64,000 nt of DNA, from NCBI GenBank assembly GCA_015068085.1, contig SVLF01000005.1:3684-67683 (forward strand). Reading direction: 5' to 3'. The translations under genes and the position numbers were made by a program. This DNA comes from Oscillospiraceae bacterium. GTDB lineage: Bacteria; Bacillota; Clostridia; Oscillospirales; JAAYXM01. This document shows, piece by piece, positions 12,735 through 21,501 of the stretch. Positions within the stretch are counted from its first letter, which is position 1. Every line of letters begins with the position of its first letter. The notes beneath the pieces were generated by a model. It saw only the letters and a program-made list of their open reading frames with translations. It did not search any database and was not told the DNA's origin.

Positions 12735-12763
12735 TTTACAAATTCGTAATAATATGGTATACT
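12735..12763 (+). promoter_or_regulatory. sigma-A-type promoter with extended -10 (TTTACA-17-TGgTATACT) for the five-gene operon
   Basis: TTTACA 12735-12740, 17-nt spacer ending in TGG, TATACT 12758-12763, about 60 nt before ATG 12825. Confidence 0.5.
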
Positions 12764-12824
12764 AAAATAGTATTTGAAGATAGCGAAGGCTGTCGAAAAA
12801 CAGTGTTAAGACAGGAGAAAAGAT

Positions 12825-15098
12825 ATGGGAATTGCAGCAGTAGAATATCAAAAATATATAGATATATGTAGGAAAATTGAAAATGATGAAGAAATATCCG
12901 ATATACGCCGGGAAATATCGCGGCTTGAGGGTGAACTTAAGAAAGCTGAGAAAGAATACAGGCAGATAGCCAATGAATCGGATGCGGTTATTGACAGTAT
13001 GGTGGACTCGGATATAGCTGAAAGGTTTGGTGATGCTTCAGCCGGACATAAAAATGAATTGGAAAAGTTGGAAAAGAAGAACAATTCTTACATAGCTGCG
13101 CTTACGCCGGAACAAAGAAGATATCCGGAAATTCTGCGTGAAAACAGGGAGTTTGTTGCGTCTTTTCACAAATACAGGGAACAGTATGAGAACGATGCAA
13201 GTACTCTGTCGGAAATGTTCCCGCAACGCGATATAAAATCGGATATTGAAGGTTGGTTCAAAGAAATACTGTATGGACACAGCACAAAGTGGGAGTTTGA
13301 CGAGATTAAAAAAATGGACATACCCGGACCGGTAGAGTCTGATGGACATACCTATGGCAGAACCGGTGTGTTCAGCAGGATTAAGGATATCTTCTATCCG
13401 TTTGGGTATAACAATTCCGTACCGTCGCACAAAACAGTATACATACTCTCGGGGATATCCTATATTCTTCCTGTTGTACTTGTGTTGTTGTGGTTATTAG
13501 GAAAGATTCCGGTATTGTTGACTGTTGTGGGAGCCTCGCTTGTGTGGAGTATGTGCTGCTCCTATCTCGGTGTGAGAATGGATGGGGATCCTCTTGAGGT
13601 GTTAGGAAAAGATCGGGCGTTGCTGTATCACTTCGCATTGAACGGAGATACGTTGGTGGAAGAATATACACGCGATGTTTTGAACATACCGGAAATGGGA
13701 CCTGAGCAGCTTGAAAAAGAGCTTGCGCAGGAGTTGAATGCCTTTAAGGAACGAGAAAATGAAATTCGAGCTGAACTTAAGAAACTGGATGCGCAATATG
13801 CTGATATAAAGAATGAGCAAGGTCAGATTGATATGTTGTTCGGGCAGCTTGAAGCAGATGCGCAGGGAGTACGTCTGTCACGTGCACTGAATAAGGCTCC
13901 GAAAGATCGTACAGACCATGAAAATATGATAGTTCGTGAGTATGAGGAAAAACGTCTCCGCGCGATCGAACGCCGCAATGCTGCCGAACAGAAGTTCAAA
14001 AATAATATCAGTGCATCATCCGCATTGAAGTCCGAACTTTGGGATATGCCGGATAAAGTTAAGGCTTATGAAAAGGATATGCAGCGCCAGATACAAGTGG
14101 CATGGGGAATTGCTATTCTGCTTGAGGGAGAAAGTGCGCTTAATAAACTTCGCCACCAGGTGGATTCAGATGCAGAGCTTGAGGCGACAGAGCGTGAAAA
14201 ACTCCGTAACAAATATCTCAAAGAACGCCGGTGCCGACGTGATAAGGCACAGCAACGCTGTGATGTGCTGCGCAATCAGCTTGGTGAGGTTCAGCGACAG
14301 CTGGGAGAGGTTGAGGCGTTGCGCCATAAAGAAATGGAAGATGCGCGTGCGTTTATCTCCGGCGTGGAATCGCGTATGGAAATGAGCAACGAGGAAACTA
14401 AGTGTGTGCTCAGTCCCTGCACGTTTGTGATGAGCAGTGATGCACATCACGGTCCTTGCGGACCGAAACTCAGCAAGTTTGTCCACAATGGCAAACCGAG
14501 CGTACTGCTGTATACGCTTGATGGAAGTAAGACTGATGCAACCACGCAGCTGTCACCGCTGCTTGAGCGTATGCTGCTTAGCTTCTTTACTACCAACAGC
14601 ATGCTCACTGTATGTCCGCAAAAAATTGTAGATACCATCACAGGAGCCAAGAATTTCAAATCAAAGGATTATGAAAACTTGGTGGAGGTTGTCGAAACTT
14701 CGAATCAGATACGCAAGCTGACTGATTCTCTTGACGAGCTTGCTGAAATGATAGTAACGAACGGAGTACGGTCGCTTGACGAACTCAACGAACGGCGTGT
14801 GAATGACTCCGGCGTTCCGGTGGCAAATAACGTGGTATACTTTGTTCTGCCGAGTGATTCAGGAGCAGCTTCGCGCGTGATGAGCGAAGAAATGTGGCGT
14901 CTGGTAAGGCGCGGTCCCAACTATGGATTTTTGCCAATATTCCTCATTGAGCGTCGGTGCTGGGAGGAGTATGAAAACAATGAGGATAAGTTCAGGCATT
15001 CATCAGATTTCTACACCTCTTTGTTTGGCATAATTGATTCTGAGCAGATATATGATGTTGACTTGACGGCATGCACGCTCAAGCCCCACAATAGATAA
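12825..15098 (+). CDS. hypothetical membrane-anchored coiled-coil protein with a C-terminal degenerate (Walker-less) FtsK/SpoIIIE-like domain (P1 of the operon)
   Basis: 757-aa ORF with AGGAG 7 nt upstream. TM hairpin at aa ~205-249 (VYILSGISYILPVVLVLLWLLG / IPVLLTVVGASLVWSMCCSYLGV). Charged heptad-like stretches at aa ~20-130 and ~290-510. The C-terminal ~240 aa follow the FtsK order, but with LDGSKTDAT in place of GxxGSGKS and VYFVLPSD in place of hhhhDE. Confidence 0.6.
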   Translation: MGIAAVEYQKYIDICRKIENDEEISDIRREISRLEGELKKAEKEYRQIANESDAVIDSMVDSDIAERFGDASAGHKNELEKLEKKNNSYIAALTPEQRRYPEILRENREFVASFHKYREQYENDASTLSEMFPQRDIKSDIEGWFKEILYGHSTKWEFDEIKKMDIPGPVESDGHTYGRTGVFSRIKDIFYPFGYNNSVPSHKTVYILSGISYILPVVLVLLWLLGKIPVLLTVVGASLVWSMCCSYLGVRMDGDPLEVLGKDRALLYHFALNGDTLVEEYTRDVLNIPEMGPEQLEKELAQELNAFKERENEIRAELKKLDAQYADIKNEQGQIDMLFGQLEADAQGVRLSRALNKAPKDRTDHENMIVREYEEKRLRAIERRNAAEQKFKNNISASSALKSELWDMPDKVKAYEKDMQRQIQVAWGIAILLEGESALNKLRHQVDSDAELEATEREKLRNKYLKERRCRRDKAQQRCDVLRNQLGEVQRQLGEVEALRHKEMEDARAFISGVESRMEMSNEETKCVLSPCTFVMSSDAHHGPCGPKLSKFVHNGKPSVLLYTLDGSKTDATTQLSPLLERMLLSFFTTNSMLTVCPQKIVDTITGAKNFKSKDYENLVEVVETSNQIRKLTDSLDELAEMIVTNGVRSLDELNERRVNDSGVPVANNVVYFVLPSDSGAASRVMSEEMWRLVRRGPNYGFLPIFLIERRCWEEYENNEDKFRHSSDFYTSLFGIIDSEQIYDVDLTACTLKPHNR

Positions 15099-20666: not shown

Positions 20667-20679
20667 AGGAGATTGCAGG

Positions 20680-21501
20680 ATGAATTGTGGATTTATGAAG
20701 AGAAATTTCGGAAAGCTTGGAGGTTTTTACACCTTCGCTGTACCGATATATATTTTGCTTCTGATGATGTGCTTCAATCGAGGCGGAAATGCAAATGCCG
20801 GTGTTGGTATAGCATCCGGTTTTCCGGAGAATTCGAACACAGCAGTGGAAGAAATATTCGATTACTACACGGTATATGACGCTGACGGTGCGGAAGAGAT
20901 ATACGAGGCGGGCGAGCGCGTTGTGAAGTCTATGGATGAAACCGCGGATACGCTTATGTCCGGCGGCAGTGCATATTTTGACGATGTGGATTGCGTTTCA
21001 CTGACAACGTCGGTGCAGTCGAAATCCAATGTACTCTACCATTATATGAGTCTGGGCGGGGATCTTGGTCAAGCAATTTTCGGTGCCGTGGAAAACTCCG
21101 GTAAATGGGAATATTTCTTCGTGCCTGCGGACGGTAGTGAGGACTATTTAATATCGTTTACACTTCCGTCTGATGTTGCAAACCGCAAAGGCGTAATAAA
21201 GGAAGGCGCACAGATAGATATATACAGTGAACCCGGTTGCTATGACAGCTATGCGACGCTTGTTGTTGCAATAAGGAAAGAGAATGGCTCGCGGCAGATA
21301 ATGTCCTACTATGTAGAAACTGCGGCAGACGGGAAGCAGAAGTTTACTGAGGGTGAAACAGTCAAGATAAAGGATAGCCAGAATGCGTATATGTATAGCT
21401 ATAATGAGCTTCATCTTGTGACAAACGGATTGCTTGGACAGAAGGTGAAAAGTTATACTTTTGAGGGCGGTACGGTAACCGAAGCAGATGTGGAAAGATA
21501 A
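20680..21501 (+). CDS. hypothetical exported / N-terminally membrane-anchored protein (P5)
   Basis: AAAGGAG 7 nt before ATG 20680. N-terminus MNCGFMKRNFGKLGGFYTFAVPIYILLLMMCFNRGG looks like a signal/anchor, possibly a lipobox-like LMMC. The rest is polar and beta-rich looking. Confidence 0.6.
   Translation: MNCGFMKRNFGKLGGFYTFAVPIYILLLMMCFNRGGNANAGVGIASGFPENSNTAVEEIFDYYTVYDADGAEEIYEAGERVVKSMDETADTLMSGGSAYFDDVDCVSLTTSVQSKSNVLYHYMSLGGDLGQAIFGAVENSGKWEYFFVPADGSEDYLISFTLPSDVANRKGVIKEGAQIDIYSEPGCYDSYATLVVAIRKENGSRQIMSYYVETAADGKQKFTEGETVKIKDSQNAYMYSYNELHLVTNGLLGQKVKSYTFEGGTVTEADVER

Follow-up and report, generated by a model that had tools for sequence, protein, structure and literature searches.

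We infer that five consecutive genes, P1 to P5, in the 64-kb window (the whole stretch of DNA analysed, 64,000 nucleotides) encode both a minimal type VII-like protein exporter and its cargo, a reading that we regard as fairly probable. The combination of an EssC-like motor with polymorphic toxin/immunity logic suggests that the operon works like a type VII secretion system (T7SS). It nevertheless falls outside the described T7SSs because WXG100, YukD, EssA/B and EsaA proteins are absent and the ATPase is split, and by these tests it is a member of no described subtype. A paper describing this split-ATPase system was not found in the literature. A sequence-only reading of the same DNA had proposed a divergent type VII-like export/effector system. 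This is supported by the EssC/EccC D1-like domain of P3, the pseudo-ATPase domain of P1 and the paralogy of P2 with the N-terminus of P4, and is further backed by toxin domains at the P4 position of related loci, where the next gene co-varies with the toxin.

Operon layout and genomic setting

All five ORFs and the features described below lie on the + strand. The ORF list gives P1 (757 aa) at 12825..15098, P2 (241 aa) at 15112..15837, P3 (737 aa) at 15916..18129, P4 (836 aa) at 18156..20666 and P5 (273 aa) at 20680..21501, separated by 13, 78, 26 and 13 nt. Each start is preceded at 6–10 nt by a GGAG-type Shine-Dalgarno sequence, that of P3 being the weakest; an alternative TTG start for P5 lies 21 nt upstream. 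A sigma-70-type promoter-like site (TTTACA-17 nt-TG-n-TATACT, 10/12 matches with an extended -10 TG) at 12735..12763 is the best-scoring one between 12400 and 22000. Ahead of it, at about 12660..12699, a GC-rich, bulged hairpin followed by a T-run, read by eye as an intrinsic-terminator-like element (GGATGCTGAAAGTC-ACG-GACTTTCCAGCGTCC, then CTTTTGTT), is situated 3' of the fuculokinase stop codon and ends the upstream fucose operon (fucI, fucK). The terminator scanner missed this hairpin because its stem is bulged. Fucose-utilisation genes flank the operon upstream and purA/ugd downstream, with a promoter-like site for purA at 21674–21702. The coordinates and spacing given in the sequence-only reading, its claim of a Shine-Dalgarno sequence for every gene, the near-consensus promoter, the fucose-operon terminator before it and the placement of the block ahead of the purA promoter were all recovered. 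At 0.447, the G+C content of the operon is the same as that of the window (0.45 on average), and its composition therefore gives no sign of recent acquisition.

Pfam, NCBIfam, PADLOC and PHROGs recognise P3 only, in line with the earlier statement that a single product is recognisable, and none of them places P1, P2, P4 or P5 in a characterised family with a confident profile match. The reported absence of WXG100, EssA, EssB and EsaA also holds: none of the five proteins matches WXG100 in Pfam at E≤1, and none has a Pfam or NCBIfam match to EssA, EssB/YukC, EsaA/YueB, FHA domains or a YukD/EsaB-type ubiquitin-like protein. The intergenic gaps of 13–78 nt leave no space for an unannotated gene of the YukD/EsaB type, and no small ORF of the 64-kb window is a plausible WxG candidate. 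No wall-spanning component is evident in the system, and no DNA-binding or nuclease domain was detected in its proteins with Pfam and NCBIfam.

The ATPase motor and its membrane anchor

P3 is a soluble FtsK/SpoIIIE-family ATPase and the putative motor. It matches Pfam FtsK_SpoIIIE at 3e-32, and a hydrophobicity scan found no transmembrane (TM) segment in it. Both the EccCa and EccCb models of NCBIfam are matched in part (EccCa at 6e-27), as is EssC (3e-22); with a single domain aligned, these scores stay well short of the full-length cut-offs. Against the PDB, P3 matches EccC (4nh0, 4e-24) and YukB (8.5e-21), in both cases aligning to the D1 domain, and YukB is its best profile match. By sequence, the solved structures nearest to P3 are the motor domains D1 of EssC/YukB and of EccC. 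TcpA of pCW3 is also a sequence match. Pfam and PDB searches identify one P-loop domain, at aa ~120–350 (16273..16965), with Walker A GRTGSGKS at aa 135–142 (nt 16318–16341) and Walker B VDEFQ at aa 241–245; G135, T137–S142 and D242–Q246 are invariant in 18 family members. The C-terminal half, aa ~381–737 (17056..18126), is family-specific, with no PDB or Pfam match and no profile similarity to the motor domain, and its extreme C-terminus (ERSFKKY...VPSIDFD) is highly conserved. Homologues of P3 fall into at least 477 clusters with 40–50% identity over the full length. Some relatives of 1142–1161 aa carry a second FtsK domain, which brings them to an EssC-like multi-domain count.

P1, which has no family match, is the membrane anchor subunit. 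From its N-terminus, it has a cytoplasmic coiled coil, two TM helices forming a hairpin and a second, long coiled coil, and it ends in a pseudo-ATPase domain. A Kyte-Doolittle scan places the two helices of the hairpin at aa ~203–250 (13431..13574), and at least two hydrophobic segments occur at the equivalent place in all 27 P1 family members compared. P1 is a membrane protein whose two TM helices leave both ends on one side, presumably in the cytoplasm. Its family is small: a search of 1.84 billion proteins gave just 32 representative clusters. The conserved part is aa ~480–755. A homologue is found upstream in every related locus with sufficient upstream sequence.

The FtsK-like domain that ends P1 is invisible to BLAST and to profile-profile comparison, and emerges from structure prediction. 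The AlphaFold2 model of aa 480–757 (pLDDT 88.4, pTM 0.81) indicates with high confidence that the C-terminus (aa ~530–757, 14412..15095) adopts an FtsK/EssC fold. In Foldseek searches, all 34 PDB matches of this domain with E<1e-3 belong to the FtsK family, and they include TcpA, EccC, EssC D3, EccCb1 D2 and FtsK. The top match is TcpA of pCW3, and EssC and EccC domains match equally well. GK[ST] is not conserved at the P-loop position of the P1 family. We therefore consider the domain a pseudo-ATPase, since the fold is predicted and a conserved Walker A is missing, as the sequence-only reading had anticipated for a Walker-less FtsK-like domain. Its view of an ATPase split over two polypeptides likewise stands, with a soluble ATPase, P3, and a separate P1 that carries the TM hairpin and the domain of FtsK/EssC fold.

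The P2-like domain, the candidate effector and P5

P2 is a standalone, all-helical protein (seven helices in an AlphaFold2 model, pLDDT 81) under strong constraint, with a dN/dS of 0.024. W75 and G92-E-x-A are conserved, and N167-x-x-[YF] is invariant. Its gene always lies directly upstream of the ATPase gene in related loci. Pairwise BLAST finds no similarity between P2 and the N-terminus of P4. However, an HMM built from standalone P2-like proteins matches the P4 N-terminus at E=1.5e-9, and jackhmmer started from the P4 N-terminal domain converges on the P2 family. P2 itself matches effector N-termini of five other loci by BLAST (8e-14 to 9e-4), and hhalign relates the P2 family to the effectors of a second clade (92%, E=6e-7). 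These sequence profiles show P2 to be paralogous to the helical domain formed by the first ~200 residues of P4, and confirm the common ~190-aa N-terminal domain proposed earlier. P2 is the founder of a domain family that also forms effector N-termini; it may be secreted together with the effector or serve as a targeting factor.

P2 is not demonstrably WXG100- or LXG-like. A WXG100 match appears for just one of 30 P2-family sequences and stays below threshold (22 bits against a cut-off of 27.3), with aa 178–220 aligned to the second helix. The P2 family profile gives no better than E=0.18 against S. aureus EsxA, and Foldseek on the P2 model returned nothing significant. Neither P2 nor P4 matches LXG (Pfam PF04740) at E≤1. 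LXG is also absent among the best 25 of 123 families matched at E≤1 by 30 P2-like domains, and among the E≤0.01 matches of 20 P2-family members scanned singly. In PADLOC, P2 has only a coiled-coil-level match to ZorA (E=0.0027).

P4 is the candidate exported effector. Its P2-like helical domain, aa 1–200 (18156..18755), is a candidate targeting domain, identified by HMM, jackhmmer and alignment. A low-complexity linker rich in G, Q, N and P follows at aa ~201–265 (18756..18950); in an alignment of four relatives its length differs, with a 24-aa deletion in P0124. The remaining ~570 aa (18951..20663) form an orphan region without a family match, the candidate toxin/effector moiety. This region has no Pfam, NCBIfam, PADLOC or PHROG match, and no toxin domain can be recognised in it; its only detectable relatives are in four close homologues, and jackhmmer found none in 50 related loci. 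For the whole protein, a search of 5.8 billion proteins gave only four clusters, with 68–100% identity. P4 shows neither a signal peptide nor a TM segment, and P2 and P4 are both without a Sec signal.

P5 is a candidate cognate immunity or accessory protein, in which no immunity family could be recognised. A single N-terminal hydrophobic segment, aa 13–33 (nt 20716–20778), precedes an extracytoplasmic domain of ~240 aa, which agrees with the earlier description of an exported or membrane-tethered protein. Among related loci, P5 occurs only alongside the type of P4 present in this window.

Related loci and evolutionary rates

In two related genomes (loci L127 and L128), the same five genes adjoin purA with dN/dS values of 0.02–0.17, and on this basis we consider P1 to P5 to be real genes. 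The rate climbs from motor to cargo: P2 and P3 have the lowest values, P1 and P5 come next (P5 with 83–86% identity and dN/dS 0.08–0.11), and P4 evolves fastest (70–76% amino acid identity where purA has 98%, dN/dS 0.15–0.17). More widely, ~40 related Bacillota loci, from Lachnospiraceae, Tissierellia, Sporosarcina and human-gut metagenomes, have P1-P2-P3 as a constant core followed by an effector gene. Co-conservation of the genes, to which the sequence-only reading had tied its proposal, is thus found in both close relatives for all five genes and in the wider set for the P1-P2-P3-effector order. The operon neighbours vary between genomes.

The gene after P3 in these loci always begins with a P2-like domain and ends in a variable C-terminus. 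Overall, at least five unrelated C-termini are found joined to P2-like N-domains, and named toxin domains are present in three of them. An ADP-ribosyltransferase exotoxin domain (ADPrib_exo_Tox, 6.6e-18) occurs once, in L003, and the glutamine deamidase Gln_amidase/Tox-PL1 occurs in L009 and L089 (3.6e-16 and 3.2e-12). The fifth gene co-varies with the toxin type: the two that follow Tox-PL1 (L009_5 and L089_5) are homologous to each other, and the other fifth genes are unrelated.

Proposed mechanism and alternative explanations

We propose that P1 would oligomerise in the membrane, as a hexamer like other FtsK-family rings, and that its pseudo-ATPase ring would dock the P3 ring. The two rings may rebuild the stacked multi-domain architecture of EssC/EccC from two polypeptides. 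P2 and the P2-like N-domain of P4 could pair into a helical bundle serving as the export signal, a pairing that would parallel EsxA or the Lap partners with LXG toxins, and the family-specific C-terminal half of P3 may recognise it. Powered by ATP hydrolysis in P3, P4 and perhaps also P2 would then cross the membrane by way of the P1 TM helices; a channel made from two TM helices per P1 subunit can be suggested only tentatively. The orphan C-terminal region of P4 would act as the effector, against which a P5 anchored outside the membrane would shield the producer. Such a location of the protector suggests a target in the cell envelope.

The same machine could instead carry a non-antibacterial cargo, with P4 (and P2) acting on the cell surface or a host and P5 serving as an extracytoplasmic partner or receptor instead of conferring immunity; adhesion, envelope remodelling and signalling are roles that such a cargo could have. 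The 570-aa C-terminal region of P4 without a toxin-family match, the large external domain of the membrane-anchored P5 and purifying rather than overall diversifying selection on P4 (dN/dS about 0.16) would fit this explanation, and canonical T7SSs (ESX systems) export non-toxin substrates too. However, sister loci encode an exotoxin-type ADP-ribosyltransferase or Tox-PL1 at the equivalent position, the gene after the effector co-varies with the toxin as immunity genes do, and within the operon P4 changes fastest, with P5 found only beside this P4 type. We consider a non-toxin cargo unlikely. An intracellular anti-phage or anti-plasmid system, close to the alternative named in the sequence-only reading, appears quite improbable. 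In it, invading DNA would be sensed or pumped by an FtsK/HerA-type ATPase tethered to the membrane, and the variable fourth protein, here P4, would be released as an abortive-infection effector. P3 has partial PADLOC matches to the defence-associated FtsK/HerA ATPases SspH (1e-21), mad8 (7e-13) and HerA (2e-8), but they are limited to the generic P-loop domain, and the other four proteins have no significant PADLOC family match. The position of the block between housekeeping operons, with neighbours that vary among genomes, and the variable effector modules would also suit a defence system. Conversely, Pfam and NCBIfam detected no DNA-binding or nuclease domain, and P5 faces outward. The relatives' effector domains are of the secreted polymorphic-toxin type, and the genes after them co-vary like immunity genes, for which an abortive-infection effector has no need; a defence role would leave these toxin/immunity-like cassettes unexplained. 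Moreover, the paralogy of P2 with the effector N-termini has no known parallel among defence systems and mirrors T7SS partner/substrate pairs.

A remnant or minimal DNA-transfer module with a TcpA- or TraB-type conjugative coupling protein is very improbable. It is suggested by TcpA of pCW3, which tops the structural matches of the P1 C-domain and matches P3 in sequence, yet the EssC and EccC domains fit P1 just as closely. No relaxase, VirB4/TcpF, VirB6/TcpH, peptidoglycan hydrolase, integrase or oriT-like context was found in the operon or its homologues, searches of 72,556 plasmids, 50,697 phages and the IMG/VR contigs revealed no full-length relative, and DNA transfer would leave the toxin-bearing cargo genes unexplained.

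Comparison with known systems

Taken as a type VII-like exporter, the operon shares several features with T7SSb, the type VIIb system of Bacillota. As with EssC/YukB, its motor is an FtsK/SpoIIIE ATPase; as with LXG toxins, the cargo has a ~200-aa helical N-domain, variable toxin C-termini and co-varying next genes; and P2, a small helical paralogue or candidate partner encoded beside the motor, would correspond to the Lap/WXG100-like partners. Unlike in T7SSb, a soluble motor is encoded apart from the membrane anchor, which has a pseudo-ATPase domain, the helical partner has 241 aa rather than ~100 aa and is not recognised as WXG100, and the operon has no EssA, EssB/YukC or EsaA/YueB and no EssC-type FHA domains. 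An N-terminal LXG domain (PF04740) is not recognised in P2 or P4.

In mycobacterial ESX-1 (T7SSa), EccC is split into EccCa1, with the TM part and the first ATPase domain, and EccCb1, with the second and third; NCBIfam keeps EccCa and EccCb as separate models. The present operon likewise shares the ATPase between a membrane-anchored and a soluble polypeptide. However, here the membrane subunit carries the dead domain and the soluble P3 the active, D1-like one, and EccB, EccD, EccE, MycP and an EsxA/B pair are absent.

Compared with the general definition of T7SSs (PMC11217815), P3 provides the FtsK/SpoIIIE ATPase of EssC/EccC lineage, and P4 (aa 1–200) has the helical targeting domain expected of substrates, with toxins and co-varying genes at homologous positions. 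Conversely, the single membrane-bound ATPase with TM helices and three P-loop domains is replaced by the P1/P3 split, no ~100-aa WXG100 (EsxA-type) protein is encoded in the cluster, and the YukD/EsaB-type protein of most subtypes is lacking. T7SSc to T7SSj, described by Garrett, Higginson and Palmer in 2024, are also non-canonical Bacillota sets around an EssC-family ATPase, some without FHA domains and with LXG- or RHS-type toxin cargo (PMC11217815). All of them have a membrane-bound ATPase, TsxC; a core WXG100 protein, TsxA, is identifiable in all except T7SSi and a YukD-like TsxB in all except T7SSd; and the P1/P2/P3 layout occurs in none (PMC11217815). That survey was seeded with full-length EssC and would probably miss a split system.

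TcpA of Clostridium perfringens pCW3 and the FtsK DNA translocase have the same P-loop fold and sequence family, being top structural matches of the P1 C-domain and significant sequence matches of P3. Unlike these, the operon has no conjugation or DNA-handling partners, its P1 domain lacks the nucleotide-binding loop, and toxin-like cargo genes are its neighbours; the relaxase, VirB4-type ATPase, VirB6/TcpH and mobile-element context of conjugative type IV coupling or TcpA-type systems are missing. No complete signature set of a known anti-phage system (PADLOC-DB 2.0) is present, and P1, P4 and P5 match nothing significant there. Zhang et al. (2012) list WXG, LXG and LDXD as trafficking domains of the T7SS route of polymorphic toxins, and the P2-like domain is none of these (PMC3482391). 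Their catalogue includes Tox-PL1 (Pfam PF15644; PMC3482391). At the family level the loci studied here have the organisation of a polymorphic toxin system, with a putative trafficking N-domain, swapped C-termini and immunity-type genes.

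Operon organization and genomic context

The anatomy of the operon at 12.7-21.5 kb mirrors the logic of type VII secretion, carried out with fewer and different parts. Its five forward-strand open reading frames encode P1 (12825-15098, 757 aa), P2 (15112-15837, 241 aa), P3 (15916-18129, 737 aa), P4 (18156-20666, 836 aa) and P5 (20680-21501, 273 aa), with intergenic gaps of 13, 78, 26 and 13 nt and a GGAG-type ribosome-binding site upstream of every start codon. These coordinates, gaps and Shine-Dalgarno sites agree with those of an earlier sequence-only reading. The near-consensus promoter which that reading had placed after the fucose terminator and before the purA promoter was also located (TTTACA-17-TG-n-TATACT, 12735-12763, forward strand, the best-scoring site of the region), as were a bulged hairpin with a T-run at the end of the upstream fucose operon (~12660-12699) and the purA promoter-like site (21674-21702). 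A scan of the P5-purA interval gave no convincing terminator. Directly 5' of the purA promoter-like site, at 21623-21667, stand 1.9 copies of a 23-nt unit (TACATTTCAATAATCTTTTTGACG, 95% match), which may serve in purine regulation as a duplicated operator.

Purifying selection acts on each of the five genes (dN/dS 0.02-0.17), which we therefore regard as real. The co-conservation at issue in the sequence-only reading is found in two related genomes, L127 (GCA_054283085.1) and L128 (GCA_054295325.1), where the same five genes adjoin purA. The upstream neighbor is not constant. In the window it is a fucose-utilization cluster (8476-12654) of an AraC-type regulator on the reverse strand, an L-fucose isomerase and an FGGY-family (fuculose-type) kinase, identified from the Pfam annotation of the syntenic L128 genes; in L127, this cluster is replaced by other genes and the operon still lies beside purA. 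A 322-aa antisense ORF rich in Ser, Ala and Thr (19346-20314, reverse strand) lies wholly within P4; it is most likely a by-product of sense-strand codon composition and not a gene.

The operon has a G+C content of 0.447, against 0.49-0.51 in its immediate flanks. Composition was rejected as a sign of horizontal transfer because this value equals the window mean (0.45). A prophage or plasmid origin was likewise rejected, since plasmid, phage and IMG/VR collections held no full-length relative.

A soluble motor and a membrane pseudo-ATPase

P3 is the sole product that Pfam, NCBIfam, PADLOC and PHROGs recognize, as had been anticipated. Computational analysis shows it to be a soluble, EssC-D1-like ATPase with intact catalytic motifs. 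It carries a single FtsK_SpoIIIE domain (aa ~120-350, E=3e-32), in which the Walker A (GRTGSGKS) and Walker B (VDEFQ) motifs are invariant among 18 family members, and a search for transmembrane segments found none. The nearest solved relatives are T. curvata EccC, B. subtilis YukB (aa 687-884) and EccC5 (aa 488-688), matched in each case through the first (D1) motor domain; FtsK and the conjugative coupling protein TcpA rank after them. The C-terminal half (aa ~381-737) is family-specific; neither sequence nor profile comparison gave it a match, and hhalign did not relate it to the P3 motor domain either.

The P3 family is large (at least 477 clusters sharing 40-50% full-length identity) and occurs in Lachnospiraceae, Tissierellia, Sporosarcina, Aerococcaceae, Ligilactobacillus and many human-gut metagenome contigs. 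One sub-family (L003 10001-13429, L004; proteins P0006-P0014) has 1142-1161 residues and a second FtsK_SpoIIIE domain N-terminal to the usual one. Since these forms, too, adjoin P1- and P2-like genes, the family is not uniform in its number of motor domains. The contig listed for one homologue with 41% identity to P3 (P0075) has 23,089,233 bases. This length greatly exceeds that of a bacterial replicon and points to a eukaryotic assembly with bacterial contamination or a misassembly.

P1 consists of an N-terminal coiled coil, a hydrophobic hairpin (aa 203-250) kept in 27 of the 27 family members examined, a long coiled coil and a C-terminal domain, with conservation limited to aa ~480-755. HMMER, run exhaustively over 1.84 billion representatives, yielded only 32 clusters. 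PHROG "tape measure" matches were set aside as coiled-coil compositional. No relation of P1 to P3 or any ATPase emerged from BLAST, hhalign or PDB profile searches: in hhalign, neither the P1 family nor its C-domain was significantly similar to the P3 family or to P3 sub-domains, and the PDB profile search gave coiled-coil noise only. The fold relation is visible only in a structure model. An AlphaFold2 model of aa 480-757, built on homologues from the exhaustive representative search, is a confidently predicted alpha/beta domain (pLDDT 88.4, pTM 0.81). All 34 of its Foldseek PDB matches at E<1e-3 are FtsK-family domains, including TcpA, EccC, M. tuberculosis EccCb1 D2, the FtsK motor and S. 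aureus EssC D3 (TM 0.53 on target). GK[ST] is not conserved at the P-loop position of the family, and the "GSKT" of the window P1 is lineage-specific. Because every match belongs to the FtsK family and the P-loop signature is not conserved, the predicted structure shows the P1 C-terminus, computationally, as a pseudo-ATPase of the EssC/FtsK fold. This bears out the Walker-less FtsK-like domain assigned there from sequence. In one related locus (L091 4066-6481), the P1 homologue seems to be divided between a 614-aa ORF containing transmembrane segments and a 162-aa ORF with part of the C-domain. A frameshift, pseudogene formation or an error of assembly could account for this.

P2 and the P2-like domain

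P2 is predicted to be all-helical, with seven helices (pLDDT 81). Foldseek matched its model only to uninformative, generic helical bundles (ferritins and designed proteins; E ~0.1, TM 0.2-0.3), and a ZorA match was dismissed as coiled-coil compositional. Pairwise BLAST found nothing between P2 and P4 or between P1 and P3, so profile methods were needed. An HMM built exclusively from standalone P2-like proteins detects the N-terminus of the window P4 (E=1.5e-9), and jackhmmer started from P4 aa 1-200 converges on the P2-like family. The N-terminal domain that P2 and P4 had been said to share is thus recovered, a relation to which pairwise BLAST is blind. The window P2 also matches P2-like proteins of related loci and the N-termini of post-ATPase proteins in five other loci (E 8e-14 to 9e-4). 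A second, large clade has a ~460-aa post-ATPase protein, again with a P2-like N-domain (hhalign 92%, E=6e-7). Conserved features of the domain are W75 (29 of 30 sequences), G-[ED]-x-A and an invariant N167-x-x-[YF]-x-x-[IL]-x-P. These profile comparisons show, at the computational level, that the small helical P2 is paralogous to the N-terminal domain carried by variable, toxin-bearing proteins.

A word-indexed search with the P2/P4-N profile returned 28 proteins, nearly all of one sub-clade and none with an effector architecture. In a single clade (L106 4657-6237, L107 5812-7392, L111 5984-7396), a gene upstream of the P2-like one encodes a protein of 470-526 aa that ends in a P2-like domain, an order that recalls the "reverse arrangement" T7SS lipase toxins. 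The L111 protein has a weak N-terminal metallopeptidase-like match (DUF6782, E=0.004).

Constant core and variable putative cargo

Approximately 50 related loci were analyzed. Wherever enough upstream sequence was present, a P2-like gene lies directly 5' of the ATPase gene and a P1-like gene further upstream, with one or two extra genes between them in some clades. Three loci that at first seemed to lack P1 contain a divergent homologue (hhalign 98.8%, E=1.4e-16). The C-termini behind the P2-like domain vary among loci: an ADP-ribosyltransferase exotoxin domain in L003 (6.6e-18), a Tox-PL1 glutamine deamidase in L009 and L089 (3.6e-16 and 3.2e-12), and orphan regions in several others, including the window P4. 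The gene after the effector changes with the effector C-terminus; the two Tox-PL1 loci have a homologous fifth gene, and the fifth genes of other loci are unrelated.

P4 is composed of a ~200-aa helical domain, a linker rich in Gly, Gln, Asn and Pro, and ~570 residues without relatives. A word-indexed search of 5.8 billion proteins found only four clusters of relatives (68-100% identity), and hhalign between the P4 family and the effector family of the second clade gave nothing. The linker varies in length, with a 24-aa deletion in one homologue (P0124). A 12-residue tandem duplication (FVSPATDWIDKK twice; aa ~689-712, window ~20220-20291) is absent from the three closest relatives. P5 has one N-terminal hydrophobic segment, in keeping with the exported or membrane-tethered protein first described, followed by a ~240-aa domain with no relatives outside three close genomes. 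Searches of 50 loci by jackhmmer with the P4 C-region and with P5 gave nothing.

Evolutionary rates in the window's lineage follow the order expected for machine and cargo. Amino acid identity to L127/L128 is 98% for purA, 95-96% for P2, 92-93% for P3, 83% for P1, 83-86% for P5 and 70-76% for P4.

Other gene sets accompany the core elsewhere. The largest clade (L010 5775-8526 and ~25 similar human-gut metagenome loci, e.g., L096, L098, L113 and L121) has a seven-gene layout. Its ATPase gene is followed by an effector of ~460 aa, in which many G/A-x3-G/A stretches give the C-terminal half the look of a glycine zipper, and by three conserved small genes (~130, ~147 and ~165 aa); the ~147-aa protein has two transmembrane helices and CxxC pairs. 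Sel1-repeat proteins of 861-1027 aa are encoded two genes 3' of the effector in L008 (9874-12957), L009 (10684-13743) and L089 (13547-16132), two of which carry Tox-PL1, and are followed by a ~210-aa protein with C-terminal hydrophobic segments.

Proposed mechanism and alternatives

Type VII-like export of P4 by a split P1/P3 motor is the probable mechanism. The sequence-only reading had proposed a divergent type VII-like export/effector system with a split ATPase; the P1 pseudo-ATPase, the EssC-D1-like P3, the P2/P4-N paralogy and the toxin-bearing relatives support it, and from them we infer export. We propose that P1 oligomerizes in the membrane and that its pseudo-ATPase ring docks the P3 ring, which would rebuild the EssC/EccC stacked-ring architecture from two polypeptides. 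The export signal may be P2 paired with the P4 N-domain, in parallel to EsxA or Lap partners with LXG toxins, and its likely receptor is the conserved C-terminal half of P3. Export would be driven by ATP hydrolysis. P5, anchored to the membrane's outer face, would protect the producer, and such a location hints at an envelope target for P4.

The same machine might instead export a cargo other than a toxin, a reading we regard as unlikely. An intracellular defense system, the alternative raised from sequence, draws on PADLOC matches that are generic P-loop only, and the exotoxin-type domains and immunity-like gene pairs of the relatives argue against it; it is less likely still. That the operon is a DNA-transfer module seems very improbable.

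Comparison with known systems

The system works like a T7SS combined with a polymorphic toxin system, yet it is a member of no described T7SS subtype. The canonical T7SS ATPase is a single membrane-bound three-domain polypeptide, unlike that of P1-P5. Pfam and NCBIfam searches found no YukD-like protein, EssA, EssB, EsaA or FHA domain in P1-P5, and no WXG100 protein was found in the operon or the window, as the first reading had also concluded; 30 P2-family members compared with WXG100 gave a single sub-threshold match. The closest paper on the subject describes eight extra subtypes, T7SSc-j, all with a canonical membrane-bound ATPase and nearly all with a WXG100 protein and a YukD-like protein (Garrett et al. 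2024, PMC11217815); their gene sets differ from the P1-P5 layout. T7SS trafficking domains are given as WXG, LXG and LDXD (Zhang et al. 2012, PMC3482391), and Pfam models do not recognize the P2-like domain as any of these. We found no description of the P1-P2-P3 layout in the literature, and none of the P1-, P2- and P4-type proteins checked in the source databases has a name there.

We would class the operon as a minimal type VII-like export system, with a split motor and a new family of trafficking domains, that is widespread in gut Bacillota. The proposed core comprises P1 as membrane pseudo-ATPase anchor, P2 as 240-aa helical partner and P3 as soluble EssC-like motor. We give even chances that this is the founding example of an undescribed three-core-gene Bacillota secretion system that exports a new class of polymorphic toxins marked by an N-terminal P2-like domain, that lacks WXG100, YukD and every other canonical T7SS accessory protein, and that is common in human-gut Lachnospiraceae. 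If so, it would be either a T7SS relative simpler than any other known or a case in which an FtsK ATPase was independently recruited to export proteins. If export is real, its three core genes would form the smallest known FtsK-driven protein secretion apparatus, the P2-like domain would be a new trafficking domain for polymorphic toxins, and the system would test whether WXG100 and YukD-like proteins are universally required for type VII-like export. Hundreds of unannotated effector/immunity genes in gut Firmicutes would then become recognizable, including orphan effectors of no known fold like P4. Because human-gut metagenome contigs and Lachnospiraceae MAGs often carry homologues, the system may have been overlooked as a mediator of competition between dominant commensals.

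A naturally split motor would also allow docking (pseudo-ATPase) and power (active ATPase) to be studied separately; the two are hard to separate in EssC/EccC proteins of 1,300-1,500 residues. The EccC of mycobacterial ESX-1 is naturally split and offers a precedent for a divided motor such as P1/P3. However, in ESX-1 the active D1 is on the membrane half, whereas in the P1/P3 system D1 is on the soluble P3.
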